In this document: in pieces, positions 1 through 24,007 of the stretch
How positions within the stretch are numbered: the first letter of the stretch is position 1
How the letters are laid out: each line of letters opens with the position of its first letter
From: Tubulanus polymorphus
Taxonomy: Eukaryota; Animalia; Nemertea
NCBI RefSeq assembly: GCF_964204645.1
Contig: NC_134028.1
Coordinates: forward strand, 10,602,001-10,666,000
Length of the DNA: 64,000 bases
Reading direction: 5' to 3'
Notes under the pieces: model-generated
What the model saw: the letters and a program-made list of their open reading frames with translations, nothing else
The model's database searches: none
What the model was told of the DNA's origin: nothing
Made by a program: the position numbers and the translations under genes

Positions 1-29
1 TTTAACTTTAATAAAAAATCTTATTTTAA

Positions 30-1087
30 ATGGAAGGTGGGATATATGAAATACAAACTCCAAGTGAAATGATATCAGATATATATTATATATTACCTTT
101 TGATGAATACATTAAGTATTTTGGAGATTACTTTATTCAATTCAAATATAGAATAAGTAAAATTTGAATTATGAGAATTATGATAAGATTGAACCTGATA
201 TCAAAACCAAAAAGACAAATGAAAAATATTGTGATGTATGTAAGAAATATATATCATATAAAAATTGGGCATCACATAAGAAATCAAAGAAACATATAGA
301 AAAAGAAAAGAATAATAATGATAATAATATATCAGTTAGTAATATAAAAGATAATGTTAATACAACTGAAACAAATGATACCATAGATAATATAACAGAT
401 AATGTAATAAATAATGTTAACCCAATTGAAACTAATGATAATGATATAAAAGATAATGAAATAATTGATGATTCTAAAAAACATTGTAACATTTGTGATT
501 TAGATATCTCTAAAAGTAATTTTTCTAAACATAAAAAATCTCAAGCGCATATGGAAAATGAAAGGGTGTTAGAAGAATATGAAAAGAAATTAGAAGAAAT
601 AGAAAGAAATAAAACGTGTCGATATTGTAATAAGAAAATTGAACCTGTTGATGAAAATACTCATTATAAATCAAAATTAAATCTAATTAATGTTTATAAA
701 ATGGTGAGTATGATACCATTGTTAAATAACCCAAAGAAATATATCAAATATTTTAATCCTAAAACTAACCAATATTATATATTCTATAAGTAGTTATTTG
801 ATAAATTATTAGCTTATGCAGAAGATAATCCTGAACAAATATATAAATTATTATATTTTAGAAAAATAGCTTTAAGTTATCTGATAAATAATTTTAGAAA
901 TCATTTTGATTTTGATTATGATGATTTTGATGAATACTTAGAAAAATTAAGAGAAAAAGCTAATATACCTACTAATTATTATGTTAAGATGGCTCGACTA
1001 AAATTAATAAATATACCTAATACTTTAGATGAATTAGATATAAACAGAGATGATTTTATAAATGTATTAGAAACGAAATTAGAATAA
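30..1087 (+). pseudogene. Polinton A multi-zinc-finger (CxxC...HxxxxxH) protein, disrupted
   Basis: ATG at 30 (MEGGIYE..., like B MEGGKVYE...). Frameshift near 165. Fingers such as YCDVCKKY...HKKSKKH and HCNICD...HKKSQAH. In-frame TAG at 791-793, with the reading frame continuing to ~1087. Confidence 0.75.
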
Positions 1088-1195
1088 TTATTATAAAACT
1101 AATTTATATATCTATGTACTAGACGTACGTAAGAATCTTGGTAAGAATCCAAGAATCCAAGAAATCTTACTTTCTTACTCGTACGTCTAGTACAT

Positions 1196-1231
<36 letters not shown>

Positions 1232-1482
1232 GTTTTCATAAAAATTAAAAACATAAAATTATTAATCTAAGTATAGAAATAGTTATAATATAATCTATTT
1301 TTATTTCAAGAGAAAACGTATGATTGATTCATTTTTATATAATTCATTAAATAATTTATATATCTATGTACTAGACGTACGTAATAATCTAAGAATTCTT
1401 ACTTTCTTACTTTCTTAGCAAGAATCTTGGATTCTTACGTACGTCTAGTACATAGATATATAAATTAGTTTCTATAATAATT
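1086..1482. repeat. Double hairpin: four copies of TATATCTATGTACTAGACGTACG in alternating orientation
   Basis: Copies at ~1107, ~1180 (rc), ~1359 and ~1438 (rc). Outer arms are ~50 bp. Loops are built of AAGAATC/TTCTTAC repeats. Confidence 0.9.
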
Positions 1483-1494
1483 CAAATTAGGATT

Positions 1495-1656
1495 TTATTT
1501 TATACATTTATATTCATATGGAAATTGAAGCCTCAGTAATAATTTTGAACCTTTATTATTCTTTAATTCATTCATATATTCATCATGTAACTCAGTAGGT
1601 ATAATTTGATTTTCTTCCAATGATTGTTGCATAGATTTTCTATCTTTGTTATAAAA
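1495..1656 (-). pseudogene. Packaging ATPase C-terminal fragment (copy A)
   Basis: FYNKDRKSMQQSLEENQIIPTELHDEY...FPYEYKCIK is nearly identical to the C-terminus of 7810-8421. Confidence 0.92.
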
Positions 1657-3117
1657 CAAGAGCCCCAAGGGGCACAATGGCCAGCCTGTCAGATTTGCTT
1701 TTTATAAATGATGTAATCTGTGGGTTATATTTATCAATATACACTCCCTGCTCAATATCATTTACATAGTAAAATCGTGTGTTAACACAGACAGCAGGAA
1801 CGAATGTAATATAGAAATACTAAGTTATTGTATTGTTCAACGCCCCCTGGTGGCCATAAAAAAACCAATGAGCTTGAAACTCACCTCGATCATAGAACAT
1901 GTCATGAGCTACAACTTTCCAATTGATTATAGTAGCAAAATATGCTTAAGTATCAATTATGATGTGGAAAAACTTTTTTTCCACCTACGAATGAGTACTG
2001 ATGACCCCAAGATGGCTGCCAAGTGCGTCATAATTGCCTGGTCAAAAATACCCTCTCGGATATAAAAGATCCCTTTCCAAAGAATACCCATTACAAATTG
2101 CAATGAAACATGGCGCACCATTAGAAAGATACAGTACTCAGAATTCAGGCCAAAATTGACATTTTTGGGAACAAAAAAGGTCACAGTACGGCCATCTTGA
2201 GTCCGATCGACTCAATTTTTCTCATGCCGATGGGCCCTCGAGGGATACAAATATATACGAATGATCAAGGTTATTGATAAAAGTGTCTTCAAAATTTCCC
2301 TCGAAAACTTCAAAAATGTGTAAAAAGTGCTGATTTTGGCGAACAACAATGGCTGCCAGTCGGCCATCTTGAATCTGACAGGGCCAGTTTTTGGCCTGAA
2401 GATGTGTCTAGGGTAGATACACGTATAAAACAAATATCAAGACATTACCTTGAAGCGTCTTCAAAAATTTGGAACTAACACGAACTATCTATATGGTTAT
2501 CTCTCGACCTCAATAGCTTCAAGACCCATCTCAAAACAACTTTGTTCCATGCAGCATACCATTAACTCTCGGAAAGCGAATTGTATTTAACATTTTTTGG
2601 CAGAATAAAATTTGATTGAATTTGCAATTCGGGCACATGGCTAATTAGCATATCAAGGTCATACACCCGATTTGGTAAAACCTTTTTTTCGCGAACCTTG
2701 CGCAATTGTCAAGGATGAATTTTCTATAGAGCAAATAAAAATTCCTCCCAAACACCAAATCAACTAAAGATTTCATAGAAATCGATCTTGAAATACAATT
2801 TTAAATCTTAAAATAAAACCCGGAAGTAAAACAGTAGACGATACCGCGGATTCACGTGAACACCTGATTTCTGTAAATGAAATGTTGGTTGTGACAAAAT
2901 TGTTCAGACGGTTTTAGGTGGTAATAAGTACGGAAACGTAACGACCATGGTCGACTTATTCGATGAAATCAGGCCTATGTGATATCCAAATTTTGACTTT
3001 TTTATTCTCCAGACCTCCCTGATATAGAAATAAAAAATTTTGGTGGTACGAAAGTGCAATCACAGCGCCGACGGGGACAGAGCCGTGTCAGAGATCGGCG
3101 GAGTGAAAATTGAGGTG

Positions 3118-3714
3118 AGTAATAGGGGTTTAGTTGTTTCAAGCCAAAGGTCGAACGGTCGAGTTCATTAAAAAACAAAACATTAAAAGTAATTAAAAAC
3201 TATAATATATTTTCATAACCGTGTGTATTTTATATTATAACTAAATATTTATTCTAAGATATCAATAATTTAAAAAGCATATTGTATTAAATCAATTGGT
3301 CGCTCCACTTCGCTACCGCTCCGCTCCGCGACCAATTGATTTATTTACAATACACAAATTCATATAATCAAATATATTCAAATAATAATAATTATTCTAT
3401 TGTTCAACTGAAATACACACGGTTATGAAAATATATTATAGTTTTAAATTACTTTTAATATTTGTTATTAATGAACTCGACCATTCAACCTTTAGCTTGA
3501 AAGCCCATTACCCCTATTACTCTTAAAATATTCATATATATGAATAAAATATAAATGAATAACTTCTAAAATCAATTTTAATAAAAAATTTAGTATTAAA
3601 ATGGAAGCAAATAAGTACTACTGTCCAACATGTAATATCAATATAGATAAATCCCAAAAAGCAAGACACAATAAAATTAAAACACATTTAGAGAATAAAT
3701 TGAAACTAGAATAT
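3118..3714 (+). repeat. Left TIR of Polinton B
   Basis: Near-identical reverse complement of 18892-19487. Includes a 404-bp self-complementary terminal unit (3118-3521) and a copy of the first ~38 codons of polB. Confidence 0.95.
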
Positions 3715-3852
3715 TTACAGTTATATTCAGAACAGTTAACAAAGGCAAAGAAATTTATTGAATTATGGAATAATGATCCAAATAATGAACAATACGTTGA
3801 GGAATTTGATATCAAGGATCCGATGTTTATACTAGAAAATGATTCTATTTGA
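3601..3852 (+). pseudogene. Chimeric ORF: polB N-terminal zinc finger (TIR copy) fused to the HNH-gene C-terminal tail
   Basis: The first 38 aa match 18784-19005. The tail KAKKFIELWNNDPNNEQYVEEFDIKDP matches the translation of 5690-5773. Confidence 0.75.
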
Positions 3853-4546
3853 GCCTATATACATTCAATGTACAGAGCTATGGAATAAATCTATAAATTC
3901 ACAGCTGTTACAGCTGTTACTATGACGCCGAGACTTATGACTCATTATTACAAACGTGCAGAGAGAGAACACTCTAGAACCGGAACCAGATGACGTGGCA
4001 AGAAATGAACATACGCTGTAATATTGTGCTCAGGATATTCTATCTTTCGAAACGAAATTAGGAGTTTATAGTTTACAATTATAAATCTAAATGTAAGTAC
4101 TGTTTGTTGTAGTTATTAAGGCTATTAAATATGAAACCTTTAGATATATTTAAGTGTATTTAGTATATCTTTTAGATAGCTAGAGTTACCGCTAATATCT
4201 TTTAGATTAATAAAACGCCATACGCATCAAGAAGTGATAGAGAAACTCAAGATACTCTTTCTGACTGAGGAATCAACAGCAATGGATATCAAACCAATAG
4301 AATCACCAAAAGATCGAAGAAGAAATATAATAATTTCAAAAACATTAAGACTCCAATGATTAAGTTTAACATTTGTTGATATAGTTAAATATTTACCAGC
4401 AATTGAAAAAATGTTTGTAATTATAAATTGTATTTATAGAAATCAAATGATGTATTGGAAGAAATGACTGAACAACTTGTATAATGTATTGTGTAAATCT
4501 ATTTGGTGAATTTTTATGTTCAGTCGTTTCAATAATGATTCGTTTC

Positions 4547-4962
4547 AATTATGATTAGCGCATGCGCATTAAGCAAAAACGCTCCTATAAGAGCGGTTTT
4601 GCCTAGTGCGAACACGTTTAGATATTTCATATCGGTCGTTTCTATTTTACAGAATGAATATATAATTATAATCAGCGCATGCGCATTAATCAAAAACGAT
4701 CCTATAAAAGCGGTTTTGCCTAGTGCGCATGCGTTTGAATTTTCTATGTTCAGTTGTTTCTATTTTATAGAATGAATATATAATTATGATTAACGCATGC
4801 GCATTGATCAAAAACGCTCCTATAAGAGCGGTTTTGCCTAGTGCGAACACGTTTAGATATTTTACGTCGGTCGTTTCTATTTTACATAATTTACAGAATG
4901 AATATATAATTATGATTAACGCATGCGCATTGATCAAAAACGCTCCTATAAGAGCGGTTTTG
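4547..4962. repeat. Tandem array of ~3.5 units of ~117-126 bp, each with a ~65-bp imperfect palindrome
   Basis: Units start ~4547, 4664, 4782 and 4908. Core is CGCATGCGCA..AAAAACGCTC-CTATAA-GAGCGGTTTTG..TGCG. Confidence 0.92.
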
Positions 4963-5103
4963 CTCAGTGGTATGATTTAGATATCAAGGAATCGAAACAA
5001 CTTATCAAAAGCAACGAAGAATGAAAAAGGATGACGTTGGTCGAAGAAATGGAAGAGGATTCTAAAATTATTAACCAATTTAGTAAAAAAATATGTATAA
5101 TAA

Positions 5104-5778
5104 ATGGAATCAGAACAACCACAAACTATCAATATTACAAATAACACTGGCGTTATAAACATATACTACAAGAAGTGTTCTAAATGTGAATTAGATAAAT
5201 CATTAACAGAATTTAGTAAGCGTAAGATTAGCAAAGATGGTTTTCAATATTGCTGTAAAACTTGTACTAAACTATATACCAAACAATATCGAGAAGATAA
5301 TAGAGAAGCTTACAATGATTATATGACAGAATATATGAGAGGAAGATATCAAACAGATCTTAATTTTAGATTGAAACAATGCTTAAGGTCTAGATTAACA
5401 CAATTATTCAACAAAGAAACACATTCAGAAACATTATCTAATTTGTTGGGTTGTTCAGATGAATTTCTCAAATCATGGATTATATATCAATTCGATGATA
5501 AAATGAATATAGATAATTATGGGGATTATTACCATATTGATCACGTGTTACCAATATCTAAATTTAACATGAATGATGAATACAATAAAAAACTTATTTG
5601 GGGTTGGAAAAATTTAAGGCCTTAAGAAAAGAAGGAAAACATAATTAAATCCAATAAACTAGATATGAAATTATATTTAGATCAACTAGATAAAGCAAAG
5701 ACATTTGTTGAATTATGGAACAATAATCCAAATAATGAACAATACGTTGAGGAATTTGATATCAAGGATCCGAAATGA
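5104..5778 (+). pseudogene. HNH endonuclease-like protein with N-terminal CxxC motifs, one premature stop
   Basis: KKCSKC...CCKTC, then YHIDHVLPISKF...WKNLRP*EKKENIIKSNK. TAA at 5623-5625 interrupts the HNH motif, and the frame continues to TGA at 5776-5778. Confidence 0.8.
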
Positions 5779-6060
5779 CTTATCTGGACAGTTATAATTA
5801 CTGCTCCTAATAGATAAACAAAAGTAGTGAGATAATCTAAATCCTAATTTAAATAAAATATAATACAAATTACATACCTTCAACTATCTATTATTTCTAT
5901 TTTAATTTTTAATATTTTCTTTTCAAAAAAGAATACTTTATATCACAAATAAAAAATACTAAAAAAACAATAACTAATACTAGAATTCTTTAGCTTTAAC
6001 TAGCTTGTATCATTTGAAGAATACTTATAATATTTTTCTTATTAAATTTCTCTAATATAA

Positions 6061-6663
6061 ATGTCAAAGAAATCTAATAAGAATAGTATTGATATTGAAA
6101 AGACATTAGATGATTTGGGTATTAGTGATAATAAAGATACAGTTGTTTCTAATTCTATTCAAGTTAATAACAATATAGATTATGAATACTATTTATATTG
6201 TAAGCATCATCTTGAATTATTAATTGCTGGCGGGAAATCTAAGGAGTTTTTAAATAGAATCATTACTTTTCAAGAACTAGACTCTATGAAACCAGATAAA
6301 GTAATAAAATATTTTAAGATTTATGAAGAAGCAAGATTAGCTAAAATAAATGATTCTATTTCGAATGGTATTGTCAAATGTTACTCTAAGTTATGTAACC
6401 AGTTAATACCAATTGATGATGAAAATAAATTATATAGTGATTTGAAAAATGACTACTTAGTTATGACTGAATTACAAAAATGGGTTGGATATGCTTCATT
6501 TCAATTAGGATCGGTTATGACATTAATTTCTACTGGCGTCATAACATTTTCGAATATCAAGCCTATGGAATATAAATCAGGTAAGAATGAAACGGATGTA
6601 CTACAACCAAACGTCGAAACAGAAAATGAATCAGAACAAAAATTAACTAAAATAAATGAGTGA
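6061..6663 (+). CDS. Polinton conserved hypothetical protein (200 aa)
   Basis: Open ORF conserved in copy A (22482-23069). Confidence 0.8.
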   Translation: MSKKSNKNSIDIEKTLDDLGISDNKDTVVSNSIQVNNNIDYEYYLYCKHHLELLIAGGKSKEFLNRIITFQELDSMKPDKVIKYFKIYEEARLAKINDSISNGIVKCYSKLCNQLIPIDDENKLYSDLKNDYLVMTELQKWVGYASFQLGSVMTLISTGVITFSNIKPMEYKSGKNETDVLQPNVETENESEQKLTKINE

Positions 6664-7021
6664 TGGCGTTAAGAAAAAGGCTAGATCCGAGAAACAAATT
6701 AAATGGGCAAGAGAATTAGGTAAAAGATCTTCAGAATTAAAAAAAGCTAAGAAAAAGAAATTAACTGATATAAATGAATCACAGACTTTATCTGATATTG
6801 TTTCAAATAATAATCCATCTGATTCTTCTAATAGTGGAAGAAATAATTACTTATATATTACAATTGGGTTAATCACAATTATTATATTATCCGGTGTAAT
6901 ATATAAATCAAAATTCAAATCTGATGATAAAGATGATTCCAATGATAAACCTATCATACCCGAAAATAAGTCAAATCATAAAGTCATTGAAACTAAATCT
7001 AAATTATTATTAATGGATTAA
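6656..7021 (+). CDS. Polinton small basic single-pass membrane protein (121 aa)
   Basis: Basic N-terminus and hydrophobic YLYITIGLITIIILSGVIY. Conserved in copy A (22104-22472). Confidence 0.8.
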   Translation: MSDGVKKKARSEKQIKWARELGKRSSELKKAKKKKLTDINESQTLSDIVSNNNPSDSSNSGRNNYLYITIGLITIIILSGVIYKSKFKSDDKDDSNDKPIIPENKSNHKVIETKSKLLLMD

Positions 7022-7027
7022 AATAAG

Positions 7028-7817
7028 ATGAAAAAAGAACAATATTTGAGAGATTTATATTATAACCCAGAAAGTGAAGTATCATATTCTAACGTTTCAG
7101 AATTATGGAATAAAATTAAATCTGATAATGGTGGTATAAAATATAGTGAATTGAAATCATGGTTACAAAATCAACCAACATATCAAATCCACAAGAAAAT
7201 GGATAAAACTTATTTAACAAGGAAAGTTATGGTTTCATATATCGATCAACAATGGCAAGCAGATTTAATTGACATGAAGAACTTAGAGGAATACAACAAA
7301 GGATATTTCTGGATACTGAATGTTATAGACATATTCAGTAGATACGCATGGTAATTCTAAACATAGTTCTATAAATATGAAACCTATACAAGCTAGAAAA
7401 GAAGATAATTCAGAAATAGTTTGGAATAATTTATATGGAGCGTTTGTTACACATGATTTCGGTGAACCTAGATTCAAAATTGGACAACACGTTAGAATAT
7501 CTAAATATAGAAAAACATTTTATAAAGGTTATACTCCAAATTTTACTGAAGAAATATTTAAAATTAAAAAGATAATATTAACTAAACCTTTTGTTTATAA
7601 TTTAGAAGATCTAAAAGATGAAGAAATATTAGGTTATTTCTATGAACAAGAATTATCACTTGTACCAAATCCAGATGAAATAGAATACAAAATAGAAAAA
7701 GTATTGAAAACAAAAACTCTTAAAGGGAAAAAGTATTCTTTGGTGAAATATAAAGGATACGATGATAAATTTAATGAATGGATTTTATCTAGTAAAATTA
7801 AAAGAATAAATGAATAA
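7028..7817 (+). pseudogene. Retroviral-like integrase of Polinton B, internally deleted
   Basis: Has WQADLIDM and the C-terminal chromo-like domain. Relative to copy A it lacks ~296 bp (A 21176-21471), including the FDEGKEF and IERFN motifs, which causes a frameshift. Confidence 0.92.
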
Positions 7818-8421
7818 AGATTTATTTATATTTGAACCGCACAATATGTTAATAACTGGAGTAACAAACTGTGGTAAAATACATTTCATATTAGACTTGT
7901 TACAAACTATTTATAAGAATCATTTTGATAATATAATATTATTCTGTCCTACTTATGAAATGAATAAAACATATAATAGAGATATAGTTAAAATAAAAAA
8001 GTTTATTATATTAGATCCTAAAACAGTAAAAGAAAATTTAGATAATTGTATTAAAATAGCAATTGATACTTATAAAGGATCAAATACATTATTTATCATA
8101 GATGATTGCGCCAATTTACATGATTCAAAAGTGAGAGAAAGTGAGTTATGTTATTTAGCTTTCTCTGGGAGACATTTTGGGATAACAACATGGGTTTTAA
8201 ATCAAAAATATAATTCAATTGTTAAAGACTTTAGGGAGAATATAAGATTTCTAGTTTTATTTTATAACAAAGATAAAAAATCTATGCAATTATCATTGGA
8301 AGAAAATCAAATTATACCTACTGAATTACACGATGAATATATGAATAAATTAAAGAATAATAAAGGTTCAAAATTATTACTGAGACTACAATTTCCATAT
8401 GAATATAAATTTATAAAATAA
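7810..8421 (+). CDS. A32/FtsK-like DNA packaging ATPase (copy B)
   Basis: Walker A GVTNCGKI (GKT in copy A, so possibly inactivated), Walker B FIIDD, and GRH motif. Confidence 0.9.
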   Translation: MNKDLFIFEPHNMLITGVTNCGKIHFILDLLQTIYKNHFDNIILFCPTYEMNKTYNRDIVKIKKFIILDPKTVKENLDNCIKIAIDTYKGSNTLFIIDDCANLHDSKVRESELCYLAFSGRHFGITTWVLNQKYNSIVKDFRENIRFLVLFYNKDKKSMQLSLEENQIIPTELHDEYMNKLKNNKGSKLLLRLQFPYEYKFIK

Positions 8422-8457
8422 AATCCTAATTTAAAATATTATAGAATTTTGAATATG

Positions 8458-8748
8458 TTTGATGGATGAGTGGAGGAATTGGATGAGTGGATGAATGGAT
8501 GAGTGTAATAATATATAATTTACATGTTTTTTATTTTTAAAACAGTAAGAGTTTGATTTGAAGTTATTTTATCAATTTTATACTACATTTAAATATTATT
8601 TTAATAATATATATATTGTGTTAAATTTAATAAAGAATACAAATATCATATTTATACTCATACTATTCTTCCAATTCATGTGTTAAAAAGTAAAATATAT
8701 ATATTATTACACTCATCCACTCTTCCACTCATCCAACTCATCCATCAA
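8458..8748. repeat. Inverted repeat with iterated GGATGAGTG motifs between convergent genes
   Basis: 8458-8523 (three GGATGAGTG plus TAATAATATATA) pairs with 8690-8748 (TATATATTATTACACTCATCC...CACTCATCC...ACTCATCCATCAA). Confidence 0.85.
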
Positions 8749-8762
8749 TATATAAATGGAAC

Positions 8763-9835
8763 TTAATCTTTTTCATTTTCATATTTTTCTTTAAGCTTAT
8801 CATATTCTAACCATATATTCCTTCGCATTTTCATTGGTATAGTTCCTGAACGATTCCCGAGTTTATATTTATTGAATGTTTCTCTTGAAAATATTTTTGG
8901 AATATAATTTTCGATTTCATTTTTAGATGGATGTTTATTTAAAAATTCTCTAAATTCATCATATTTAAATTCAAATAAGTTCATTGCATAAGTTACATTT
9001 GGTTTAAAGTTATCTAACTTTTTCAATATGGTAACTATATCATTACTCGAGAAATAATCTATAAATGTTTTTCTATACCATAATAATATACCGATAATCT
9101 AATATATTCATTTTATTAAATTTTGGATTTATAACTGTTGGATTTTCTATTACATTATCTGTACCAATATGTTTAATTGAGTATTTATGATTCAATTGTT
9201 TATCATCTATTACATATTCTTTACATTTTTCACACCAAGATTTAAATACCTGTATTGCATGGGCTGAATCATTTCCACCTTTTGTTTTTAATTTATAATG
9301 TTTTGCCCAATTAGCCTTTGTTATACATTCATTACAGAAGGCACAATAATTCTGATCCTCTTTGCATTTATCTTTATATATATTGGCATATGTTTTTACT
9401 AATTGTAAAATATGTTCATCTTTTTTGATGTGTAATAAATAATCATTATAATCATCAAAATCTTCTTCACAATATATACATATCTTTTGGTTGAACATTT
9501 GATTTTTCTATTTTAGGTTCAATATTATGTTCTATTTTTGTTTCAATCTTATCATCATTCGATGTAGAAGGTATAACATTATCTTCTATTTTAGTTTCAA
9601 TATTATTATCTATTTTTGTTTTAATATTATCTTCTATTTTTGTTTCAATATTATTATCTATTTTTATATCAATATTATTATTACGTTCAATTAAATATTC
9701 TTTGTAGTGATTTAATTCATTTAATAAAAATGTTCCGATATATTCATTTATTCTTTTATAAGGTATTACATAATACAAATCATCATTGATTTCTTTATCA
9801 GCTTTGATTCTTTCATATACTTTACCTCCTTCCAT
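8763..9835 (-). pseudogene. Polinton B multi-zinc-finger protein, frameshifted (three ORF pieces)
   Basis: Pieces 9467-9835, 9073-9498 and 8763-9026. Contains CIYCEE...H...H, YCAFCNE...H and WCEKCK...H, plus (I)ETKIEDN repeats. Positional homolog of 30-1087. Confidence 0.7.
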
Positions 9836-9867
9836 TTAATATAAGATTTTTTATTAAAGTTAAAATT

Positions 9868-11115
9868 TTAATACATAGCACTATCTAATTGTGAATTTAC
9901 AATATTTAATTGCGCGTCAGATATAATATAAATGTGCATTTTAAAATTTTTGATTCCTTTATTCTTTGTCATGAATAATTGTATTCCATCTTTAGTGTTT
10001 TGTAGTTTTTTTCCAGAACCATGTAATGAATTATCCTCTGTTGTTCTAAAATCTAACCATAATGCATATTTATTACCGGTATAATAATCAATTTGATTAA
10101 TGTTACAATTTTCAAATGATTTTACTTTTTCATTCATAAAATGTTTTCTAATTTCTGGCCATTGATCAATCATTCTCATTCCTTGACAAAATATTTTATT
10201 TGCTATTCCTCCGATTGTTATTTCTACTTTTGTTATTTCAGGATTATAATAATTATCAACATTTATTGCGCCATTAGTATATGTTGCAATGGTAAAAAAT
10301 ATTAATATGCCTTTAATAGATCTTCTTGGGAAGTTAATATTCTCATTAATTATTTCATCATTTGCATTAATAGTTACGGTTTTAAATTTATCAATATAAT
10401 CATATAATAATGAAAATCCTTGATTGTATTTAGTTTGAATTATACTTGAAATATTTTCATCAGTTACTGTGTCATATTCTAAACATATATTCGATAATTT
10501 ATAACTCATATCTTTAACAACGCTAGATAATACAATTTCATTAACAGGAGCAAATGTTATCTCAAATATAATATCTTCTTGAATTGCGTATTTATATAAA
10601 GGTGCATTATTATTTATCAATTCAAAGTCTAATGGAATTTTATATTTGCTTCCATATATACTTTTTATCAATTTATCTACAGCATTAGTTAAAATTGCGC
10701 TATTAGCTTCTGATCTTAATTTATTTTGGTTTTCTGATTGGATGCCTTGAAATATCATATTATTTCTATTTTCTTTAGTTAACCATAAATCTTTATAATG
10801 CATAAATAAATTATAATCATCTAATGAGAAAACTGTTTCTGGACCAATCTTTATAGTTAATTTTTTAATCAAATATCTTCCAACATTATCAACAACATAA
10901 TTATTATTATTACCGATTACTTTTATATCGGCCGATAAATGAATACTATTTGGAACATAAAAGGTATTTTGTGTTAATCTAGGAATTCTAACATATAAAG
11001 TTTCATCGGGATTAATATTAGAAGGGTTATGAGTAATTATATGATGTGATCTTTCTGCTTTAATAGCATTAGATATTCTATGATTCTTAGAAGGATTGAT
11101 ATAACTCCCACTCAT
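9868..11115 (-). CDS. Probable major capsid protein (double jelly-roll, 415 aa)
   Basis: Intact, beta-rich ORF of the right size at the end of the structural module. Motifs HHIITHNPSNI...LYVRIP, YKLSNICLEYD and ALWLDFRT...LHGSG resemble Polinton MCPs from memory. Fold not computed. Confidence 0.75.
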   Translation of the reverse strand: MSGSYINPSKNHRISNAIKAERSHHIITHNPSNINPDETLYVRIPRLTQNTFYVPNSIHLSADIKVIGNNNNYVVDNVGRYLIKKLTIKIGPETVFSLDDYNLFMHYKDLWLTKENRNNMIFQGIQSENQNKLRSEANSAILTNAVDKLIKSIYGSKYKIPLDFELINNNAPLYKYAIQEDIIFEITFAPVNEIVLSSVVKDMSYKLSNICLEYDTVTDENISSIIQTKYNQGFSLLYDYIDKFKTVTINANDEIINENINFPRRSIKGILIFFTIATYTNGAINVDNYYNPEITKVEITIGGIANKIFCQGMRMIDQWPEIRKHFMNEKVKSFENCNINQIDYYTGNKYALWLDFRTTEDNSLHGSGKKLQNTKDGIQLFMTKNKGIKNFKMHIYIISDAQLNIVNSQLDSAMY

Positions 11116-11135
11116 TTATTTAACAAAAAAATTAA

Positions 11136-12314: not shown

Positions 12315-12330
12315 TTATATAATTAAAAAA

Positions 12331-12765
12331 TTAATAATTTATTAATTCTTTTAATAATTTATCTTGTTCTTCAACTGTTATATGACCATTTAAACTTATT
12401 ATACAATCTAGTGTGTTCTTTAATTTATTAATTTCTTTTATATTAGTTTTAATTTTTTCTTTATTACTTTTTATATTTAATTTTGAACTTATACCGGTTA
12501 AAACACTTGAACTTAATCCTAACACACCAATTGATATAGCTAAAGGTGTTAATGGTGAAAATATTGCTAAAAATGTTATTACAGAACTAATTGTAACCGA
12601 ACCACTAATAATAAGATAATATATAATTTTAGATTTTAGATATTTTTTCTTTTTTATCTTTAAGTCACTTTCAAATTCTAATATTTGTTTTTCTAAATAT
12701 ATTTTTAATTTAGTTTTATTTATATCATGAGGAATAATATCAATACTATCAACTTTATCTTCCAT
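12331..12765 (-). CDS. Polinton two-TM/coiled-coil protein (144 aa)
   Basis: Open ORF with a TAAATG start and a hydrophobic hairpin flanked by Lys-rich helices. Confidence 0.7.
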   Translation of the reverse strand: MEDKVDSIDIIPHDINKTKLKIYLEKQILEFESDLKIKKKKYLKSKIIYYLIISGSVTISSVITFLAIFSPLTPLAISIGVLGLSSSVLTGISSKLNIKSNKEKIKTNIKEINKLKNTLDCIISLNGHITVEEQDKLLKELINY

Positions 12766-12784
12766 TTATTTAGAAAAAAAATTA

Positions 12785-13207
12785 CTAATTAGTAAACTTA
12801 TAAGCAACAAATATAACAATAACAGTTCCGCCTAAAATCCATATTATTTCATATTTCTTCTGTTCATTACTTGGGGTATAATAATCTGATAATTTAGGTT
12901 TGTATAGATGTAATTTTTCTTTATTGGTTACCGCGTTATATAAACTCATAGCTTCATCAACTGATTGAAAATCTCTATGTGAAATCTTCTGATCATATAA
13001 TTCTTTGTTAATATAATCCATATAGTTTTGTCTCTTTTCTCTATATTCTTCTGCTGCTTTATTATATTTCTCTAATGCTAAGTTATGTCTTTTTTGTTCT
13101 GTTAATGAACCATTTTTATCAATATGCTTAAATAAATATCCACCTCCAGTAAATGCTAAAGCGTTAACAATTGCCGATCCTATAATAGTTATAATTGCAG
13201 AAGCCAT
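12785..13207 (-). CDS. Polinton membrane protein (140 aa)
   Basis: Hydrophobic N- and C-termini with a central coiled coil EQKRHNLALEK. Confidence 0.75.
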   Translation of the reverse strand: MASAIITIIGSAIVNALAFTGGGYLFKHIDKNGSLTEQKRHNLALEKYNKAAEEYREKRQNYMDYINKELYDQKISHRDFQSVDEAMSLYNAVTNKEKLHLYKPKLSDYYTPSNEQKKYEIIWILGGTVIVIFVAYKFTN

Positions 13208-13247
13208 TTATTTAACAAAAGAAATTATGTATTTATATGGGTGGAAT

Positions 13248-13796: not shown

Positions 13797-13813
13797 TTAT
13801 ATAGTGAGAAAAA

Positions 13814-14972: not shown

Positions 14973-17900
14973 TTAACACGTTAGAATTCTTTTCATTATC
15001 TCGTTCTCTTTTGTTTCTTCTCTTTTAAATTTTAAGTATTCATCTAAATTACAACCATAAGCAGCTGTATGAATTCCATCATCTAAAATATATCTTTTAT
15101 CATCAAATGGGTTTAAACTTATCTTTTCAATTTCTTCAATAAACATTTCATGATCTTCAGATCTTAAACATCTCATCTTATGTTTTCTAACTTCTTCATT
15201 GAATATACAATTTATGTAATCTTTGAAATGAATATTCTTTTCTACTACACTTTTGGTTATTCCTTTTAACTTTTTAGCTTCATGTTCTTTAGTTTTATAT
15301 GAATACATTTTAGATCTAATACCTATGAACTCTATCATTTCTTCACCACCTAATTCATCCTTAAACTTCCCGGGAACTTTTTTATTATCATTGCTAAACA
15401 ATTCATGATTTTTAGGATAGTTACTGAAATCAAAATGATGTTTTAATGTTTTTAAATCATCTGTTATGTTATCAGTTTTTATCTTTAATATGTAAGAATC
15501 GGTATCAAAATATAAGATTTCTATATGTTTTTCTCCAAAAAGTGGTTGTAATACATTATAATAGAATTCATACATTAGTAATTTTGATAATTCTAAAACT
15601 GAAGCGCAAACATAGATTGGTTTATTAAATTTCATAGATGTTCTTCTCATTTTAACTGCGGCTAAATTTTCATCAAATATTCTGTTACCTAAAAACTTAG
15701 GATATGTTTGTAAATGTCTAATTCTTTTACCATTACTAACTAACTCAATATCATTTCTATTTCTAATATTTTCACAAGTCTTACCATAGAATGCATTGTT
15801 CATTAACTTAAAAAAATCTTTCTCAAAATCAGTTTTAGCTTTAGTTCTCTGTTTTGTGTTAAAATCTATATATTTTTCTAACCACTTACATTGATTGAAT
15901 GAAATATATCTATGTACTTTTTTTAGAACCATTCCTTGATTCAAATAAAACTTTAACATTCTACAATGTACTACATAATTATATTTATCTTCTTGAGTTA
16001 CCATTAACTTTTCTGTATGAATATGATTTTCGGGTTTAATTCTTTTTTGATAATTTGATAATTCTTCATGAGTTACAGTTTTATGTTCGGGACAGTAAGC
16101 TAGATTTCTAGATTTAAATTTAATATGTTCAGGATATTCTAAATCTACAACAAAGAAGTAACCAGTATCTGAATCATCTGCAATATCTAGAATTCTTTTC
16201 TTCCAATCAAATTTATCATTATTTTCATTCTGTAAAACTTCAGTTAATTCAAATACTCCATAAGGTTGTGGTTCCATCATTGCCCAACCATACAAATTAT
16301 TTGCATCTATATATAATAACTTATATCCAGGGTTATCATTTACATTGAAATATCTATTACCTAATACGCCTGAAACTCCTCCTCTTATAGATTTTTCAAA
16401 TAATAGTAATTGATCTATATTTGTTAACAAATCCATTTTTATATCTGTAAATTTTAATCCACAATCCCATGTTAATCCTGGACTTGAATAACAATGACAA
16501 GGATCAATATTGAAATATTTTAGGTTTACATCTCTAAACCTTTCGAATATATCGGTTAATAATAATACATCTGATTTTAAATATAAATCTACTAATTGCC
16601 CATGATTTTCTATTTTGAAATGATTCCAAATATTCAATGACTTCATCTTTAACATATTCATTTTTTAATTCATCATAGAATTGTTCTTTCAATAATTCAA
16701 TTATTTTAAAATCATTATGTGATTTATAAAATGAATATGGAATTGCGCCTTTATATCTCATTAATTTAAAATCATCATTATTTGGGTAGTGTTGCTTTAA
16801 TATTTTTAATTCATCATCAACTAATGATTTTGATAAGTTATCTAATGAACTATTTAAAAATCTATATGAATCTATAAATCTTAAACACCCAAATTGGAAT
16901 GATATATAATTCTCAGATGTTTTAGCTAACATTCTAAATTTATAAGTTGGTATTTTATCTTTTGATCTATTTGAATTTAATATTTCTATTTCATTATTGA
17001 TTTCTTCTATTTTATGACATAACTGTTTGATAAATAAATGCGCGTCATACCCCGATAAATTGTGAAATATAATGGGGACAAAATTGATTTTCTTTGCTTG
17101 CAAATTACAATTCTCATGCGCAGCGCCTCTAAACTTTCCATTCAAATGATCATGGTCTCTTACTTTTTTATCTTTATAATTAAATATCTTTTCACAATAA
17201 TAACATTTACCTGAAAACGCAAATTCTTCTTTATCTTTTTCTGTCATAATTATTTCTTTATTTGTATTCAATAATTTACTAAATCTTATTTCATATTCAA
17301 TTAATAAGTCACAAAAATGATTGATAACATTTTCATTTCTATAATCATAATATTCACTTTCAATTAGTTCTGGATAATCAGATTTAATATATAACCCGAA
17401 AGCTGCAGCTGATTGATGAATCTTTTTAATAGTATTTGTTTTTGGTGGTTCATCTGAAAAATCATTTTCATTACAATTTAATTTCTTTCTTTTATAATAT
17501 ATTTCTTTTCTATCTTGATCAGTTAGTTCTTTATTTAATGATTCAAAATCTCCATATATAACAAATGGAACTTTATTTTTGTAATTATATTTTTTGAATT
17601 CTAATATTTTATCCTTTTCATTTGGTAAAACTAATTTACAATAATCATGATTTTCACATAATTGTTTATGATTTAATAATGCAATTTCAGTTCTGAATTT
17701 AGTTATACATTTTCTACATAGATATATTTTATTATCAAAATCATTTTCTGATTTGAAAAATAAATCAATACGTTTTATCCACATATAATGATTCTCATAA
17801 TATAATATATCTATAACATCCTTTGAATCATAATCTTTTGATAGGTATAAAGGTTCTAATGTATAATGTTTTATGTTGTTACCTTTTGTATTTGGTAATT

Positions 17901-19005
17901 TGATTAAATCAAATACATTTATCTTTAGATTATTATCTCTTTCTATTTTTGGGATGTTTTTAATTATAACAGGATACTTATCTATCTTATAATTATTTTC
18001 AAATAGTTTATAATGAGTTAATCTAAAACTATGTTGTTTATAATCTTCAACTGGGTGTAAACAACCTATTATAGTCCATAGAAAACATTTATCATCTTCA
18101 TTTTGTACATTTATTACAGCATTAGTTTTAAATGGTAGTTTAATATAACTTGTTCCATTTATACTATCATCTTTATAATAAGATAAATTATTTTCATCTA
18201 TTGGTTTCGATTTAGTTAACTTATTATATTTTGTGTTATAAACATGTAAAGTCATAAATATTATCTCATCAAATATTAAACCAGATCCTTCAAAATATTT
18301 CTCTTCTATTTTAGTTTTTACTTCATTATAACATTTATCTAATTTATCATCTATATGTTGTTTAGATATAATATGTTGTGAATGAGAATTTATATTATAT
18401 ATTGGTTTATCTTCAGATTTTATGAATTTAACTTTAACTGATATACTAATTTTAGGATATTCAACATCTGTAATTATTTTTATTATTTCTTTCATATTTT
18501 CTAAATGTTTTTTATTTTCTTCTAATGTTTTTCCTTTATGAAATTTGAACTCGATAGCTGCTGGACCAATATCACTTTTAAATGCTTCGGTTATCTCTAT
18601 ATCTTTTTTATTATCTAATGAATTAATATAATTTCTTACATCTTCCATGTATGGTCTTTTATTGTTTAATTTATTTTTTATGCTTTTAATTGTCTTCTGT
18701 TTCTTATCATCATCTTTATCAAAATAATCTTCACCTAAAATATCATTATTCTTATTTCTAATATGACTTATAGATTTTAAATGTTATTTATAATATCTTT
18801 TATCACTGAATGATTGATTACATGTATCACATTTGTATGTTTCTTTTTCATTCTTTAATTCATCTAATTTAGATTCTAATATATCATCTTTATATTCTAG
18901 TTTCAATTTATTCTCTGAATGTGTTTTAGTTTTATTGTGTCTTGCTTTTTGGGATTTATCTATATTGATATTACATGTTGGGCAGTAGTACTTATTTGCT
19001 TCCAT
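14973..19005 (-). pseudogene. Protein-primed family B DNA polymerase (pPolB) with N-terminal zinc fingers and EndoVII-like insert; one nonsense codon and one frameshift
   Basis: Exonuclease motifs YGDFES and FHNLSGYD; RDHDHLNGKFRGAAHENCN; polymerase motifs YIDANNLYG, KLMNNAFYGK and YFDTDS. In-frame TAA at 18784-18786. Frameshift near 16640. Confidence 0.95.
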
Positions 19006-19487
19006 TTTAATACTAAATTTTTTATTAAAATTGATTTTAGAAGTTATTCATTTATATTTTATTCATATATATGAATATATATGAGTAATAGGGGTAATGG
19101 GCTTTCAAGCTAAAGGTTGAATGGTCGAGTTCATTAATAACAAATATTAAAAGTAATTTAAAACTATAATATATTTTCATAACCGTGTGTATTTCAGTTG
19201 AACAATAGAATAATTATTATTATTTGAATATATTTGATTATATGAATTTGTGTATTGTAAATAAATCAATTGGTCGCGGAGCGGAGCGGTAGCGAAGTGG
19301 AGCGACCAATTGATTTAATACAATATGCTTTTTAAATTATTGATATCTTAGAATAAATATTTAGTTATAATATAAAATACACACGGTTATGAAAATATAT
19401 TATAGTTTTTAATTACTTTTAATGTTTTGTTTTTTAATGAACTCGACCGTTCGACCTTTGGCTTGAAACAACTAAACCCCTATTACT
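18892..19487 (-). repeat. Right TIR of Polinton B
   Basis: Reverse complement of 3118-3714. Self-complementary unit at 19084-19487. Confidence 0.95.
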
Positions 19488-20266
19488 GAGGTGGACGAAC
19501 ACGAAGAAGTAGGCTATTGCGCTACTTGAATCACGAAAACTCCTGGCGCGGCCCCGACGCTTTTCGTTGATTAAGTAATACAAATATCATGCAATGGGTT
19601 TTCACAATCTACCGCTGGTATTTACCGGATTTCAATATCACTCCAAAATTCAAAGAAACCTCGAAATATCGAACCGGAACACTTCCGGTAGATATCCGCG
19701 GCTGCCCAACCGGGAAACTTATTTGTTTCAATAGATATTGATAGGATCCATCATCTTCACCCGTCAAGGGATTCGAACCCACTAAGCTAAAGCCATGCCA
19801 GAATTGGGTCGGGCCAATCACAGCGCTTGTAACAAACCACATTAGACTTCTGTGGAATTTCCCAGTGAATGGGCCAATCAGCGAACACGTAGCGAACGCG
19901 GAAGTATTGTCGCGTGTTGATACATGACGTCATGCGCAAAAGCGCCAGTAATGAAATCGCGATAATTCACGTGAACAGCTGCTGATATTTTCAGATAAAC
20001 CAATCACAGGGAAGACACAACTTCCTGATTGGCTGATAAAAATTGAAATTTTCCCGATTTAACTTTCGTGAAAAATGCAGAAAACATTTTTATGAGACCC
20101 TATTTCAAAATTCTGCTCGCTACGATTCCGAGAATGGATTACGCTTAAATACGTGATTTGTTCGAATATGCCCTCACTTGGCAAGCAAAAGAGCCTTTTG
20201 TGTGGAAACCATGTCATTTAAATTCGCTCCATTTGTATAGTAATAGGCTCAGCCTACGGCTGGCCT

Positions 20267-20718
20267 AATAAAACTAGAAATCTTATATTCTCCCTAAAGT
20301 CTTTAACAATTGAATTATATTTTTGATTTAAAACCAATGTTGTTATCCCAAAATGTCTCCCAGAGAAAGCTAAATAACATAACTCACTTTCTCTCACTTT
20401 TGAATCATGTAAATTAGCGCAATCATCTATAATGAATAATGTATTTAATCCTTTATAAGTATCAATTGCTATTTTAATACAATTATCTAAATTTTCTTTT
20501 ACTGTTTTAGGATTTAATATAATAAATTTTATCATCTTAACTATATCTCTATTATATGTTTCATTCATTTCATAAGTAGGACAGAATAATATTATATTAT
20601 CAAAATGATTCTTGTAAATAGTTTCTAACAAATCTAATATGAAATGTGTTTTACCACAATTGGTTACTCCAGTCACTTACATATTATGCGGTTCAAATAT
20701 AAATAAATCTTTATTCAT
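20267..20718 (-). pseudogene. Packaging ATPase N-terminal part (copy A)
   Basis: GVTNCGKT, FIIDD and GRH motifs. TAA at 20677-20679 where B has TTA. Truncated at RFLVL by the insertion. Confidence 0.92.
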
Positions 20719-21799
20719 TTATTCTTTTAATTTTACTAGATAAAATCCATTCATTAAATTTATCATCATATCCTTTATATTTCACCAAAGAATACTTTTT
20801 TCCTTTAAGAGTTTTTGTTTTCAATACTTTTTCTATTTTGTATTCTATATCATCCGGGTTTGGTACAAGTGATAATTCTTGTTCATAAAAATAACCTAAT
20901 ATTTCTTCATCTTTTATATCTTCTAATTTATAAACAGAAGGTTTAGTTAATATTATCTTTTTAATTTTATATATTTCTTCAGTAAAATTAGGGGTATAAC
21001 CTTTATAAAATGTTTTTCGATATTTAGATATTCTAACGTGTTGTCCTATTTTAAATCTAGGTTCACCGAAATCATGTGTAACAAACGCACCATATAAATT
21101 ATTCCAAACTATTTCTGAATTATCTTCTTTTCTAGCTTGTATAGGTTTCATATTTATAGAAATATGTTTAGAATTATTATAACCTTTCACTAAATCATCT
21201 AATACATCGATATATTTATATGTTTCATTAGCAGTAAAATATTTCCACATTCTAGTTTTCAATGTTTTATTAAATCTTTCTATAATAGATGCTTTTTTAT
21301 CTAAATGTGTTGAAAAATATTTTACCTCGTTATCAGATAATAGTTTTTTAAAATGTTTGTTATAGAATTCTTTACCTTCATCAAATTGTATCTTACCTGG
21401 AATAGCTTCTTTAAATATTGATTTAAAAGCATTTGTCACTTCTATACCAGTTTTATTTTTGATTGGAATTGACCATGCGTATCTACTGGATATGTCTATA
21501 ACATTTAATATCCAAAAATATCCTTTGTTGTATTCCTCTAAGTTCTTCATATCAATTAAATCTGCTTGCCATTGTTGATCTATATATGAAACCATAACTT
21601 TCCTTGTTAAATAAGTTTTATCCATTTTCTGAATTTGATATGTTGGTTGATTTTGTAACCATGAATTTAATTCACTATATTTTATATTTCCATTTTCTTT
21701 ATCGGATTTAATTTTATTCCATAATTCTGAAACGTTAGAATATGATACTTCACTTTCTGGGTTATAATATAAATCTATTATATATTGTTCTTTTTTCAT
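20711..21799 (-). CDS. Retroviral-like (rve) DDE integrase with C-terminal chromo-like domain, intact (copy A)
   Basis: WQADLIDM, IQFDEGKEF and ASIIERFNKTLK, with tail YKIEKVL...LVKYKGYDDKFNEWI. Confidence 0.95.
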   Translation of the reverse strand: MKKEQYIIDLYYNPESEVSYSNVSELWNKIKSDKENGNIKYSELNSWLQNQPTYQIQKMDKTYLTRKVMVSYIDQQWQADLIDMKNLEEYNKGYFWILNVIDISSRYAWSIPIKNKTGIEVTNAFKSIFKEAIPGKIQFDEGKEFYNKHFKKLLSDNEVKYFSTHLDKKASIIERFNKTLKTRMWKYFTANETYKYIDVLDDLVKGYNNSKHISINMKPIQARKEDNSEIVWNNLYGAFVTHDFGEPRFKIGQHVRISKYRKTFYKGYTPNFTEEIYKIKKIILTKPSVYKLEDIKDEEILGYFYEQELSLVPNPDDIEYKIEKVLKTKTLKGKKYSLVKYKGYDDKFNEWILSSKIKRINE

Positions 21800-22273
21800 C
21801 TTATTTTAATCCATTAATTATAATTTAGATTTAGTTTCAATGACTTTATGATTTGATTTATTTTCTGGCATAATAGGTTTATTATCATTGGAATCATCTT
21901 TATCATCAGATTTGAATTTTGATTTATATATTACGCCAGAGAATATAATAATTGTGATTAACCCAATTGTAATATTATATTATATTACCATTTTCTTTAT
22001 CGGATTTAATTTTATTCCATAATTCTGAAACGTTAGAATATGATACTTCACTTTCTGGGTTATAATATAAATCTATTATATATTGTTCTTTTTTCATCTT
22101 ATTTTAATCCATTAATAATAATTTAGATTTAGTTTCAATGACTTTATGATTTGATTTATTTTCTGGCATAATAGGTTTATTATCATTGGAATCATCTTTA
22201 TCATCAGATTTGAATTTTGATTTATATATTACGCCAGAGAATATAATAATTGTGATTAACCCAATTGTAATAT
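21690..22273. repeat. Tandem duplication, period 298 bp
   Basis: 21690-21975 is nearly identical to 21988-22273, separated by TATATTATATTA filler. Confidence 0.9.
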
Positions 22274-22472
22274 ATAAGAAATTATTTCTTCCACTATTAG
22301 AAGAATCAGATGGATTGTTATTTGAATTAATATCAGATAATTTCTGCGATTCATTTATATCAGTTAATTTCTTTTTCTTAGCTCTTTTAAATTCTGCAGA
22401 TATTTTACCTAATTCCCTATCCCATTTAATTTGTTTCTCGGATCTAGCCTTTTTCTTAACGCCATCACTCAT
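22104..22472 (-). CDS. Small basic membrane protein (copy A)
   Basis: Homolog of 6656-7021. Confidence 0.8.
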   Translation of the reverse strand: MSDGVKKKARSEKQIKWDRELGKISAEFKRAKKKKLTDINESQKLSDINSNNNPSDSSNSGRNNFLYITIGLITIIIFSGVIYKSKFKSDDKDDSNDNKPIMPENKSNHKVIETKSKLLLMD

Positions 22473-22481
22473 TTATTTTAG

Positions 22482-23069
22482 TTAATTTTTGTTCTGATTC
22501 ATTTTCTCTTTTTCGCCGTTTGGTTGTAGTACATCTGTTTCGTTCTTACCTGATTTATATTCCATAGGTTTGATATTCGAAAATGTTATGACGCCAGTAG
22601 AAATTAATGTCATAACCGATCCTAATTGGAATGAAGCATATCCGATCCATTTTTGTAATTCAGTCATAACTAAGTAGTTATTTTTCAAATCACTATATAA
22701 TTTATTTTCATCATCAATTGGTATTAACCGGTTACATAACTTAGAGTAACATTTGACAATACCATCTGAAATAGAATCATTTATTCTAGCTAATCTAGCT
22801 TCTTCATAAATCTTAAAATATTTTATTACTTTATCTGGTTTCATAGAGTCTAGTTCTTGAGAAGTTATTATTTTTCCCAAGAAATCCTTAGATTTCCCTC
22901 CAGCAATCAATAGTTCTAGATGATGCTTACAATATAAATAGTATTCATAATCTATATTACAATTAACTTGAGTACAATTAGTTACAAATGTATCTTTATT
23001 ATCACTTATACCCAAATCATCTAATGTTTTTTCAATATCAATACTATTCTTATTAGATTTCTTTGACAT
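22482..23069 (-). CDS. Conserved hypothetical protein (copy A)
   Basis: Homolog of 6061-6663 with a frameshifted extreme C-terminus. Confidence 0.8.
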   Translation of the reverse strand: MSKKSNKNSIDIEKTLDDLGISDNKDTFVTNCTQVNCNIDYEYYLYCKHHLELLIAGGKSKDFLGKIITSQELDSMKPDKVIKYFKIYEEARLARINDSISDGIVKCYSKLCNRLIPIDDENKLYSDLKNNYLVMTELQKWIGYASFQLGSVMTLISTGVITFSNIKPMEYKSGKNETDVLQPNGEKEKMNQNKN

Positions 23070-23346
23070 TTATATAGGAGAAATTTAATAAGAAAAAAAA
23101 TATAAGTATTCTTCAAATGATATTAGTATCTCTTTGGGTTAATACTAGTTAGTTAAAGGTAAAGAATTTTAGTATTAGTTATTGTTTTTTAGTAATTTTT
23201 ATTTGTGATATAAAGCATTCTCTTTTGAAAAGAATTGTAAAAGAAAATACTAAAAAAACAATAACTAATACTAGCTTAGTTCAGCTAAAGAATTTTAGTA
23301 TTAGTTATTGTTTTTTTAATATTTTTTATTTAAATTCTATTAATCT

Positions 23347-23535
23347 TTAACCGCTCATTAAAGATTCAATGTATTGTTCATTATTCGGATCATTGTTCCA
23401 TTGATCAATAAATTTCTTACTAAATTCTGTTATAGCTAATTTATCTAATTCACACTTAGAACACTTCTTGTAGTATATATTTATAACGCCAGTGTTATTT
23501 GTAATATTGATAGTTTGTAGTTGTTCTGATTCCAT
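23347..23535 (-). pseudogene. HNH gene remnant with the nuclease domain missing (copy A)
   Basis: The N-terminus MESEQ...KKCSKCELDK..TEFSK joins directly to the tail KFIDQWNNDPNNEQY. Confidence 0.8.
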
Positions 23536-23818
23536 TTATTATACATATTTTTTTACTAAATTGATTTTAGAAGTTCAATGATTTAAATATGAATTATTTC
23601 AATCACACTTTACTAACACTTTTAATGTTTAAAAATCTAACTCATACAAATATAAATATTGAAATATGTTTAAAATATATCTATATATCTATTCTATAAG
23701 AGCTCGTTAATTACTCGTTACTTTTTTACTAACACTTTACTCACACTTTTATATTGAATAATCTATCAATTTGTATGTTATTCATATATATTTTATTCAT
23801 GTATATAAATATTTTAAG

Positions 23819-24007
23819 AGTAATAGGGGTAATGGGCTTTCAGGTTAAAGGTTGAGGGGGCGAGTGAGCAAAAAATGAAAATAACAATAATTTACAGTTG
23901 AATTAGGAGTGTGCGCGACTAATTCAACTGTAAATTATTGTTATTTTCATTTTTTTACGAGCTCGACCCTTCGACCTTTGGCCTGAAAGCCTATTACCCC
24001 TATTACT
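23819..24007. repeat. Self-complementary terminus of Polinton A (189-bp hairpin)
   Basis: AGTAATAGGGG at 23819 and CCCCTATTACT at 24007. Inner perfect arms AAAAAATGAAAATAACAATAATTTACAGTTGAATTAG / CTAATTCAACTGTAAATTATTGTTATTTTCATTTTTT. Confidence 0.93.

Follow-up and report, generated by a model that had tools for sequence, protein, structure and literature searches.

Strand-polarised terminal fold-back units in an animal Polinton with a predicted terminal protein

Strand-displacement replication frees a single DNA strand, which is established for adenovirus and phi29 and has been proposed for Polintons. Palindromic snap-back replicons, in which an end is duplicated in inverted form by template switching, occur in phi29 and in the linear plasmids of yeast and Neurospora, and palindromic phi29 mini-replicons exist. 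In the ITR of AAV the palindrome ends sharply before the unique sequence and is found in flip and flop orientations. Long palindromes are unstable.

Self-priming hairpins were described for parvoviruses (PMC11357303). In Streptomyces, the 3' overhangs fold back, bear GNA loops, and are primed by terminal proteins (PMC5449611); GNA mini-hairpins are reported to be very stable in DNA, far more than in RNA (PMC13037366). Internal palindromes are present in the TIRs of casposons (PMC4046053), and the Polinton-derived ITRs of bidnaviruses are stated not to form hairpins (PMC4061559). A 2026 preprint describes palindromes in TIRs beside the TSDs of virophages and of one PLV subtype, preferentially in non-pPolB elements (10.64898/2026.07.28.741278). 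Replication of Polintons via an excised single strand, a panhandle, and protein priming is a model, for which no experimental demonstration was found reported in the available portions of the sources. In the literature covered, to which subscription papers and Repbase reports do not belong, we found no report of end-inclusive fold-backs in pPolB animal Polintons. Hairpin ends would not be anticipated where protein priming is predicted, and here we analyse ends of this kind in two elements, A and B, of a 64-kb stretch of DNA (“the window”).

Gene content and terminal units of elements A and B

Element B is a 16.4-kb Polinton, in which we found a pPolB with predicted TP and vOTU domains, an integrase, a 6-bp TSD, long TIRs, and a packaging ATPase, all of them features by which Polintons/Mavericks are recognised (Table 1). 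Its pPolB gene is broken into pieces and its integrase is broken as well; the rve integrase family PF00665 scored above the cut-off in A. The terminal unit of “copy A” is as the sequence-only reading had described it, while the copy itself required correction: it continues at 1-1656 and is divided by the B-bearing insert. The two parts look like one element, interrupted in its ATPase gene.

Table 1. Positions of the features of elements A and B in the window
Feature	Position	Strand	Remarks
Element A, continuation beyond the insert	1..1656	-	own internal fold-back 1057-1512
Insert dividing element A	1657-20266		18.6 kb; contains B
TSD GAGGTG, left of B	3112..3117	+	also in empty-site reads
Left terminal fold-back unit of B	3118..3521		404 bp; 3'-terminal strand is -
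Left TIR of B	3118..3714		597 bp
Central hairpin, left B unit	3288..3343		16-bp stem, 24-nt loop
Stand-alone endonuclease VII/HNH-like ORF	5104..5625	+	phrog_1035, E 4e-16
Integrase of B, broken	7028..7817	+	part of the core absent relative to A
A32-type packaging ATPase	7810..8421	+	PF04665
Internal fold-back of B	8464..8751		between convergent gene blocks
Conserved 415-aa ORF	9868..11115	-	presumed major capsid protein
pPolB, C-terminal part	14973..16661	-	
pPolB, N-terminal part	16534..18648	-	predicted terminal-protein (LF/PAD-like) and vOTU domains, Endonuclease VII insertion
Right TIR of B	18892..19487		
Right terminal fold-back unit of B	19084..19487		3'-terminal strand is +
Central hairpin, right B unit	19262..19317	+	
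GNA-type mini-hairpin motifs, right B loop	19276, 19281, 19286	+	GCGGAGC at 19276 and 19281; GCGGTAGC at 19286
TSD GAGGTG, right of B	19488..19493	+	
Element A, terminal part	20267..24007	-	rve integrase ORF 20711-21799
Terminal fold-back unit of A	23819..24007		189 bp; 3'-terminal strand is +
Inner stem of the A unit	23870-23906/23919-23955		37 bp, perfect

The insert, which we take to be Helentron-like by resemblance, divides the A ATPase at an AA/TT site and terminates in a small hairpin. A TT preference of such elements is described in PMC7492417. The insert received B, and its flank beside B is multi-copy in the reads described below. Within B, imperfect tandem repeats with a period of ~117/229 bp lie downstream of the left TIR (4507-4984), and the left end has a short look-alike ORF (3601-3852), because the TIR carries the first ~38 PolB codons.

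The sequence-only reading had claimed that each terminus is a fold-back unit with two inverted copies of the end motif, and its coordinates and motifs for all three units hold. The 11-bp end motif has six exact matches in the window, namely both ends of all three units, and one further match with 1 mismatch elsewhere, where 0.68 would be expected at one mismatch; seven matches were attained in none of 100 shuffles. The left B unit is the reverse complement of the right one at 404/404 positions. Folded as single-stranded DNA, the B unit reaches -104.4 kcal/mol (z -19.3; 0/100 shuffles equally good) and the A unit -78.1 kcal/mol (z -20.9; 0/200), and both predicted folds pair the first base with the last, i.e., the terminal base against the inner motif. 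A chance origin of the fold-back is rejected. A scan with low-complexity masking found no comparable fold-back in the host DNA that makes up the window past 24.1 kb.

The B unit consists of ~115-nt arms, a divergent middle, a 16-bp central stem, and a 24-nt loop, and it has the outer ~50 bases in common with the A unit. The 37-bp inner stem of A has a longest exact match to B of only 10 AT-rich bases, so the proposal that structure was kept while sequence was replaced is upheld. Differences between inner and outer arm that A and B have in common, as had also been claimed, are seen at unit positions 28 and 35. The two TIRs of B are 99% alike, with no differences in the 404-bp unit and ~4 events in the next 193 bp, and they first differ directly after the inner motif.

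Both B (8464-8751) and A (1057-1512) have long internal fold-backs that separate convergent gene blocks and immediately follow the stop codon of the ATPase gene. Their sequences are unrelated, that of A contains nested palindromes, and clear strand polarity is seen in neither. They repeat the pattern of kept structure and replaced sequence and possibly represent bidirectional terminators. Palindromes were also observed just after the PolB match in related loci (L014:5755-5831, L070:4603-4681, L071:11732-11810, L089:8662-8746, and L085:5567-5734), and hairpin terminators may be common in Polintons.

Of 7,990 candidates from searches with PolB, 6,356 were homologues at E<=1e-30, and PF03175 was present in part of these; PolB queries of PDB sequences and of phages returned no match. 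The N-terminal 300 residues were modelled from a 93-row alignment with pLDDT 89 (41 for the single-sequence model). This model matched adintovirus/MELD PolB (E 1e-14 and 1e-10), the best viral match being an adintovirus at E 1e-14. Comparison with Y-family little-finger domains gave Z 7.6-8.0 and rmsd 2.6-2.8 for the top three (best alignment: Z 8.0, rmsd 2.8, 103 residues aligned), and comparison with vOTU gave Z 7.4 and rmsd 3.5 for 108 aligned residues; over both kinds of fold Z ranged from 7.3 to 8.0, where a structural Z <8 may reflect merely a common arrangement. Since the N-terminal model matches the TP-vOTU layout described for pPolB in PMC11161782, the polymerase of B is predicted to contain a terminal-protein domain and to retain the protein-priming apparatus.

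No Pfam family of a Rep/NS1 HUH nickase with SF3 helicase was found in the 20 ORFs, and the remaining stop-to-stop frames in B are all <=111 aa, which leaves no spare frame for Rep. An Ulp1/adenain-type protease also had no Pfam match in the 20 ORFs and no obvious spare ORF, and in B it may be lost or undetected. The 415-aa ORF has 923 homologues, with no informative name or Pfam family among the 120 listed, and has no Pfam or PHROG match itself; the query of viral contigs with this capsid candidate gave no relatives in 4 stretches. The stand-alone EndoVII/HNH-like ORF (5104-5625) is additional to the EndoVII insertion of PolB, and the related locus L030 also has one beside PolB.

Family-wide variation and strand polarity

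We used raw WGS reads of another sample with the same species label (1,934 Mb read), placed on the stretch 19091-19620. A total of 9,299 reads were placed, 152 of which fitted two places. In the inner arm and centre of the B unit, read depth was 1,084-1,423; it was ~1,700-1,850 on the outer arm and ~2,700 on the outer 50 bases, which are common to A-like families. The depth in the inner arm and centre corresponds roughly to 110-730 B-type units per genome if a genome size of 0.2-1 Gb is assumed, and units of the B type recur in high copy number across the family. An assembly artefact is ruled out, because the raw reads of the other sample cover the entire unit.

In 541 reads, the B unit is left at the exact outer tip into heterogeneous flanks (agreement 0.39), which represent many different junctions, and empty sites were found in 1,180 reads. 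Another 1,118 reads leave at the outer tip with an outer tip equal to the inner tip, so that the form paired up to its final base seems to be the commoner one and the 7-base bubble of B a minority variant. By its appearance the family is abundant and has been active recently, and its replication intermediates should therefore be reachable. Few joints remove the central hairpin (11, 8, and 17 of 9,299 reads). Arm-switching joints occur in 43 reads at five symmetric positions; as proof of flips they were rejected, because library fold-back artefacts can produce such joints in Illumina data. The loose ends past B-type tips agree with the TIR interior in 22 of 30 letters by eye, at an agreement of only 0.39, which is a weak hint that a minority of units is flipped or converted. 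In run X1, the unit-to-flank depth ratio was ~10 vs 0.4-0.8 in X3 and X7 (contig depths summed), and the value in X1 could, for example, come from element ends that are amplified or free; run X5 gave no depth on the unit.

Complementary variants at paired arm positions, which bear on the covariation that the sequence-only reading had named as a check, are present in these reads. The variants used (36 of 91 rows, unphased) map to 22 paired and 5 unpaired positions. In six of these 22 pairs both partners carry a variant, and each of the six is consistent with pairing, as far as unphased data go: 19186/19383 (T>C 25%, A>G 26%), 19190/19379 (28%/57%), 19130/19441 (22%/90%), 19109/19462, 19108/19463, and 19159/19410, where a T.T mismatch is repaired from either side. 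Mirrored variants are also expected from arm-to-arm copying without selection; the G.T polarity, however, is not explained by copying.

We counted this polarity, which the sequence-only reading had not noted, where the allele frequencies of the two partners make a wobble of 0.05 or more unavoidable. On the 3'-terminal strand, the forced wobbles in the reads comprise 12 G.T vs 1 A.C (p ~0.003), and the lone A.C sits in a weak side hairpin; in the arms, 11 of 11 are G.T on this strand (p ~0.001). The first 50 bp of the unit are mixed with reads from A-like families, and outside them only five arm pairs are left, all in the G.T direction (5/5). Within the window, G.T pairs on the 3'-terminal vs the other strand number 7 vs 1 in B and 7 vs 0 in A, where window and read counts overlap and the sites have common ancestry. 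The 3'-terminal strand of the window units folds 8-10 kcal/mol better than its partner (right B unit, + strand: -112.7 vs -104.4 kcal/mol). CpG decay was rejected as the cause of the polarity, since it is strand-symmetric in dsDNA and most of the sites are not CpG; deamination of a displaced 5'-terminal strand would predict the opposite sign.

On the 3'-terminal strand, the B loop holds two copies of the motif GCGNAGC, against just two in all the rest of the 16 kb, and another GNA motif arises there through a variant at 19298 present in 35% of reads; the A loop has none. Orientation is identical in the three window ends, and no loop-only inversion was found among the 15 of 31 joints examined. 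The earlier claim that the ends could fold on a displaced strand into hairpin telomeres or origins thus gains support from the family-wide unit, the complementary variants, the G.T wobbles, and the GNA motifs on the 3'-terminal strand. Its parvovirus-style flip/flop is not supported as a rule, given the common orientation, the lack of loop inversions in these joints, and the fixed polarity, which itself implies a fixed orientation with little flipping.

We also searched PolB-related loci, 29 viral and the best 80 of 553 from metagenomes (109 in total). An end-inclusive fold-back was present in none of the six with a candidate end motif, four of which are possibly not true ends; most Polintons seen among these loci therefore do without the design, and this blank is weak since short-read contigs tend to break at such ends. 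The closest locus, L030 (83% PolB), begins inside the TIR and lacks the element end; its gene order (L030:1-7154) is different, as PolB lies immediately upstream of the integrase block and in the same orientation. L044, a Polinton with true ends, has only a subterminal hairpin, which is a duplicated 166-nt one (L044:250-415), and telomere-like TTAGGG repeats in its TIR. A 19-base subterminal pattern had 1 viral and 34 prokaryotic matches without an end-inclusive fold-back and was taken as chance.

Possible roles of the folded 3' end

We suggest tentatively, at a little under an even chance, that the 3' fold-back is a “local panhandle”, which provides a duplex origin on the displaced strand for protein priming and protects the end. 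The polarity points to a single-stranded stage, in which the 3' strand would fold in vivo. The 3' end of the displaced strand would fold back over a few hundred bases onto the inner motif copy and pair with it, and since this copy has the sequence of the natural 5' partner, a local duplex origin could be rebuilt without the two TIRs meeting over 16 kb. The terminal protein would prime at this folded end, rather than the 3'-OH being extended, and the folded end would be shielded. The inner arm may further serve as a template for the repair of a nibbled end, keeping the arms alike. Streptomyces telomeres show that a recessed folded 3' end with GNA loops can go together with both terminal-protein priming and end repair (PMC5449611). 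A local panhandle would lead to a fixed orientation, to duplication and conservation of the outer 50 bases, presumably the origin core, to remaining arms that need only pair, and to tuning of the 3' strand only. Against it are the lack of the end-inclusive fold-back in most of the related Polintons examined, the A loop without GNA, and the weak hint of a flipped or converted minority.

Any polymerase could also use a 3' end that is paired next to a 5' overhang as its primer, a point in favour of the main rival, a self-priming hairpin telomere. Here, the folded 3' end would be extended into a closed duplex and head-to-head dimers, to be resolved by a nuclease (the EndoVII insertion of PolB, the EndoVII/HNH-like ORF, or the integrase); open ends would be primed by the terminal protein. 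In its geometry the end matches both a primer-template junction and the ITR of a parvovirus, since the palindrome stops sharply at the inner motif and the unique TIR follows; the predicted folds have a terminal palindrome with a paired 3' end, two EndoVII-like modules are present, and an identical G.T polarity is predicted. Hairpin priming was also proposed for the terminal palindromes of virophages and PLVs (bioRxiv 10.64898/2026.07.28.741278), and the weak hint of flipped tips points in the same direction, as do the arm-switching reads, although the latter are possibly library artefacts. However, nick-and-copy resolution should invert the unit, yet all three window ends have the same orientation, most B-type tips adjoin heterogeneous flanks, and the fixed polarity implies little flipping. 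Moreover, neither a Rep/HUH match in the 20 ORFs nor a spare ORF was found, and endonuclease insertions are common in pPolB and are read as homing or intein relics in PMC11161782. We regard self-priming as doubtful. A hybrid system, in which terminal-protein priming at open ends is combined with self-priming, EndoVII-resolved 3' hairpin telomeres and which sheds solo-integrating palindromic mini-replicons, seems unlikely to us; if true, present-day members of the Polinton radiation would connect the adenovirus-like with the parvovirus/poxvirus-like mode of end replication.

The remaining explanations assign the unit a different role or none. It is improbable that the unit is a functionless relic, i.e., a snap-back end duplication fixed in the family ancestor, with arm-to-arm copying and a polarity from strand-biased deamination. 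Protein-primed polymerases do switch templates, as the subgenomic molecules of phi29 illustrate (PMC4974454), unrelated internal fold-backs exist in the elements, copying alone would give mirrored variants, and the other candidate ends lack the design. Yet A and B both keep the design although their inner arms have been replaced entirely, few joints lose the hairpin despite palindrome instability, the polarity is opposite to that expected from deamination of the displaced strand, and the mini-hairpin motifs cluster in the B loop. A composite-like organisation, in which the integrase can use the inner motif and the unit moves alone or inserts by its inner end, would be compatible with the other readings. 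The number of units estimated per genome is high enough to include solo ones, and the TIRs first differ directly after the inner motif; however, the 64-kb window contains no solo unit (a weak argument), A and B are homologous on the internal side of the inner motif, where a fresh target site is not what is seen, and strand polarity is left unexplained. This option appears improbable, too. An RNA function, in which an outward transcript folds into a long hairpin as a terminator or small-RNA source and G.U pairs create the polarity, is in line with the 3'-terminal strand being the sense of such a transcript and with the long fold-backs between convergent gene blocks, where terminators are expected. 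It is very improbable, as the terminal genes point inward, GNA mini-hairpins are far stabler in DNA than in RNA (PMC13037366), and the hairpin stops exactly at the terminal base, which is relevant to DNA ends and not to read-through RNA.

The G.T polarity is a footprint that a single-stranded stage has left in the sequence, and it tells which strand takes part; the replication model thereby becomes directly testable. The same eukaryotic replicon can have both hairpin ends and a (predicted) terminal protein. This bears on the possible origin of hairpin-ended DNA viruses from protein-primed ancestors, and it qualifies the link of terminal palindromes with non-pPolB elements made in the 2026 preprint.

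Comparison with known systems

Canonical Polintons/Mavericks have the same pPolB with TP-vOTU, rve integrase, and A32 ATPase (PMC11161782, PMC10748475, PMC4061559), as well as ~600-bp TIRs, a 6-bp TSD, and an AGT start. In the adenovirus-type panhandle, as described, the two TIRs pair mutually, whereas here each end can also pair with itself.

Parvovirus telomeres resemble the present units in that the palindrome measures up to a few hundred bases, its 3' end pairs beside unique sequence (PMC11357303), and GAGC-like repeats are iterated. The differences are that no Rep/NS1 was seen here, that the element has its own pPolB and integrase, and that evidence of regular flip/flop is lacking.

In Streptomyces telomeres, as is proposed for the present units, the 3' strand folds to an inner copy of the palindrome, with GNA loops that include GCGGAGC, priming is by a terminal protein, and the fold-back is used in end repair (PMC5449611). 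These telomeres carry several short palindromes instead of one long stem, and they belong to replicons with an internal origin and Tap/Tpg end patching, without pPolB or integrase (PMC5449611). Possible Streptomyces-like traits of the present units are the polarity and, in B, the GNA motifs, the A loop being without GNA.

Snap-back template switching is, by analogy, a likely origin of the unit. Snap-back replicons are free defective molecules, while here the palindrome is fixed at both ends of a full element. Similar in placement are the palindromes of the endogenous virophages/PLVs of Halocafeteria seosinensis, elements described as rve-integrated, with the palindromes in the TIRs next to the TSD, for which hairpin priming was proposed. 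The example described from this protist is 52 nt long, and such palindromes are preferentially found in non-pPolB elements, whereas the units presented here are 189-404 nt long, imperfect, and polarised, and they belong to an animal element whose pPolB has a predicted TP. Terminal palindromes as such are already known for virophages/PLVs; their strand-polarised 189-404-nt version in a pPolB animal Polinton is new here.
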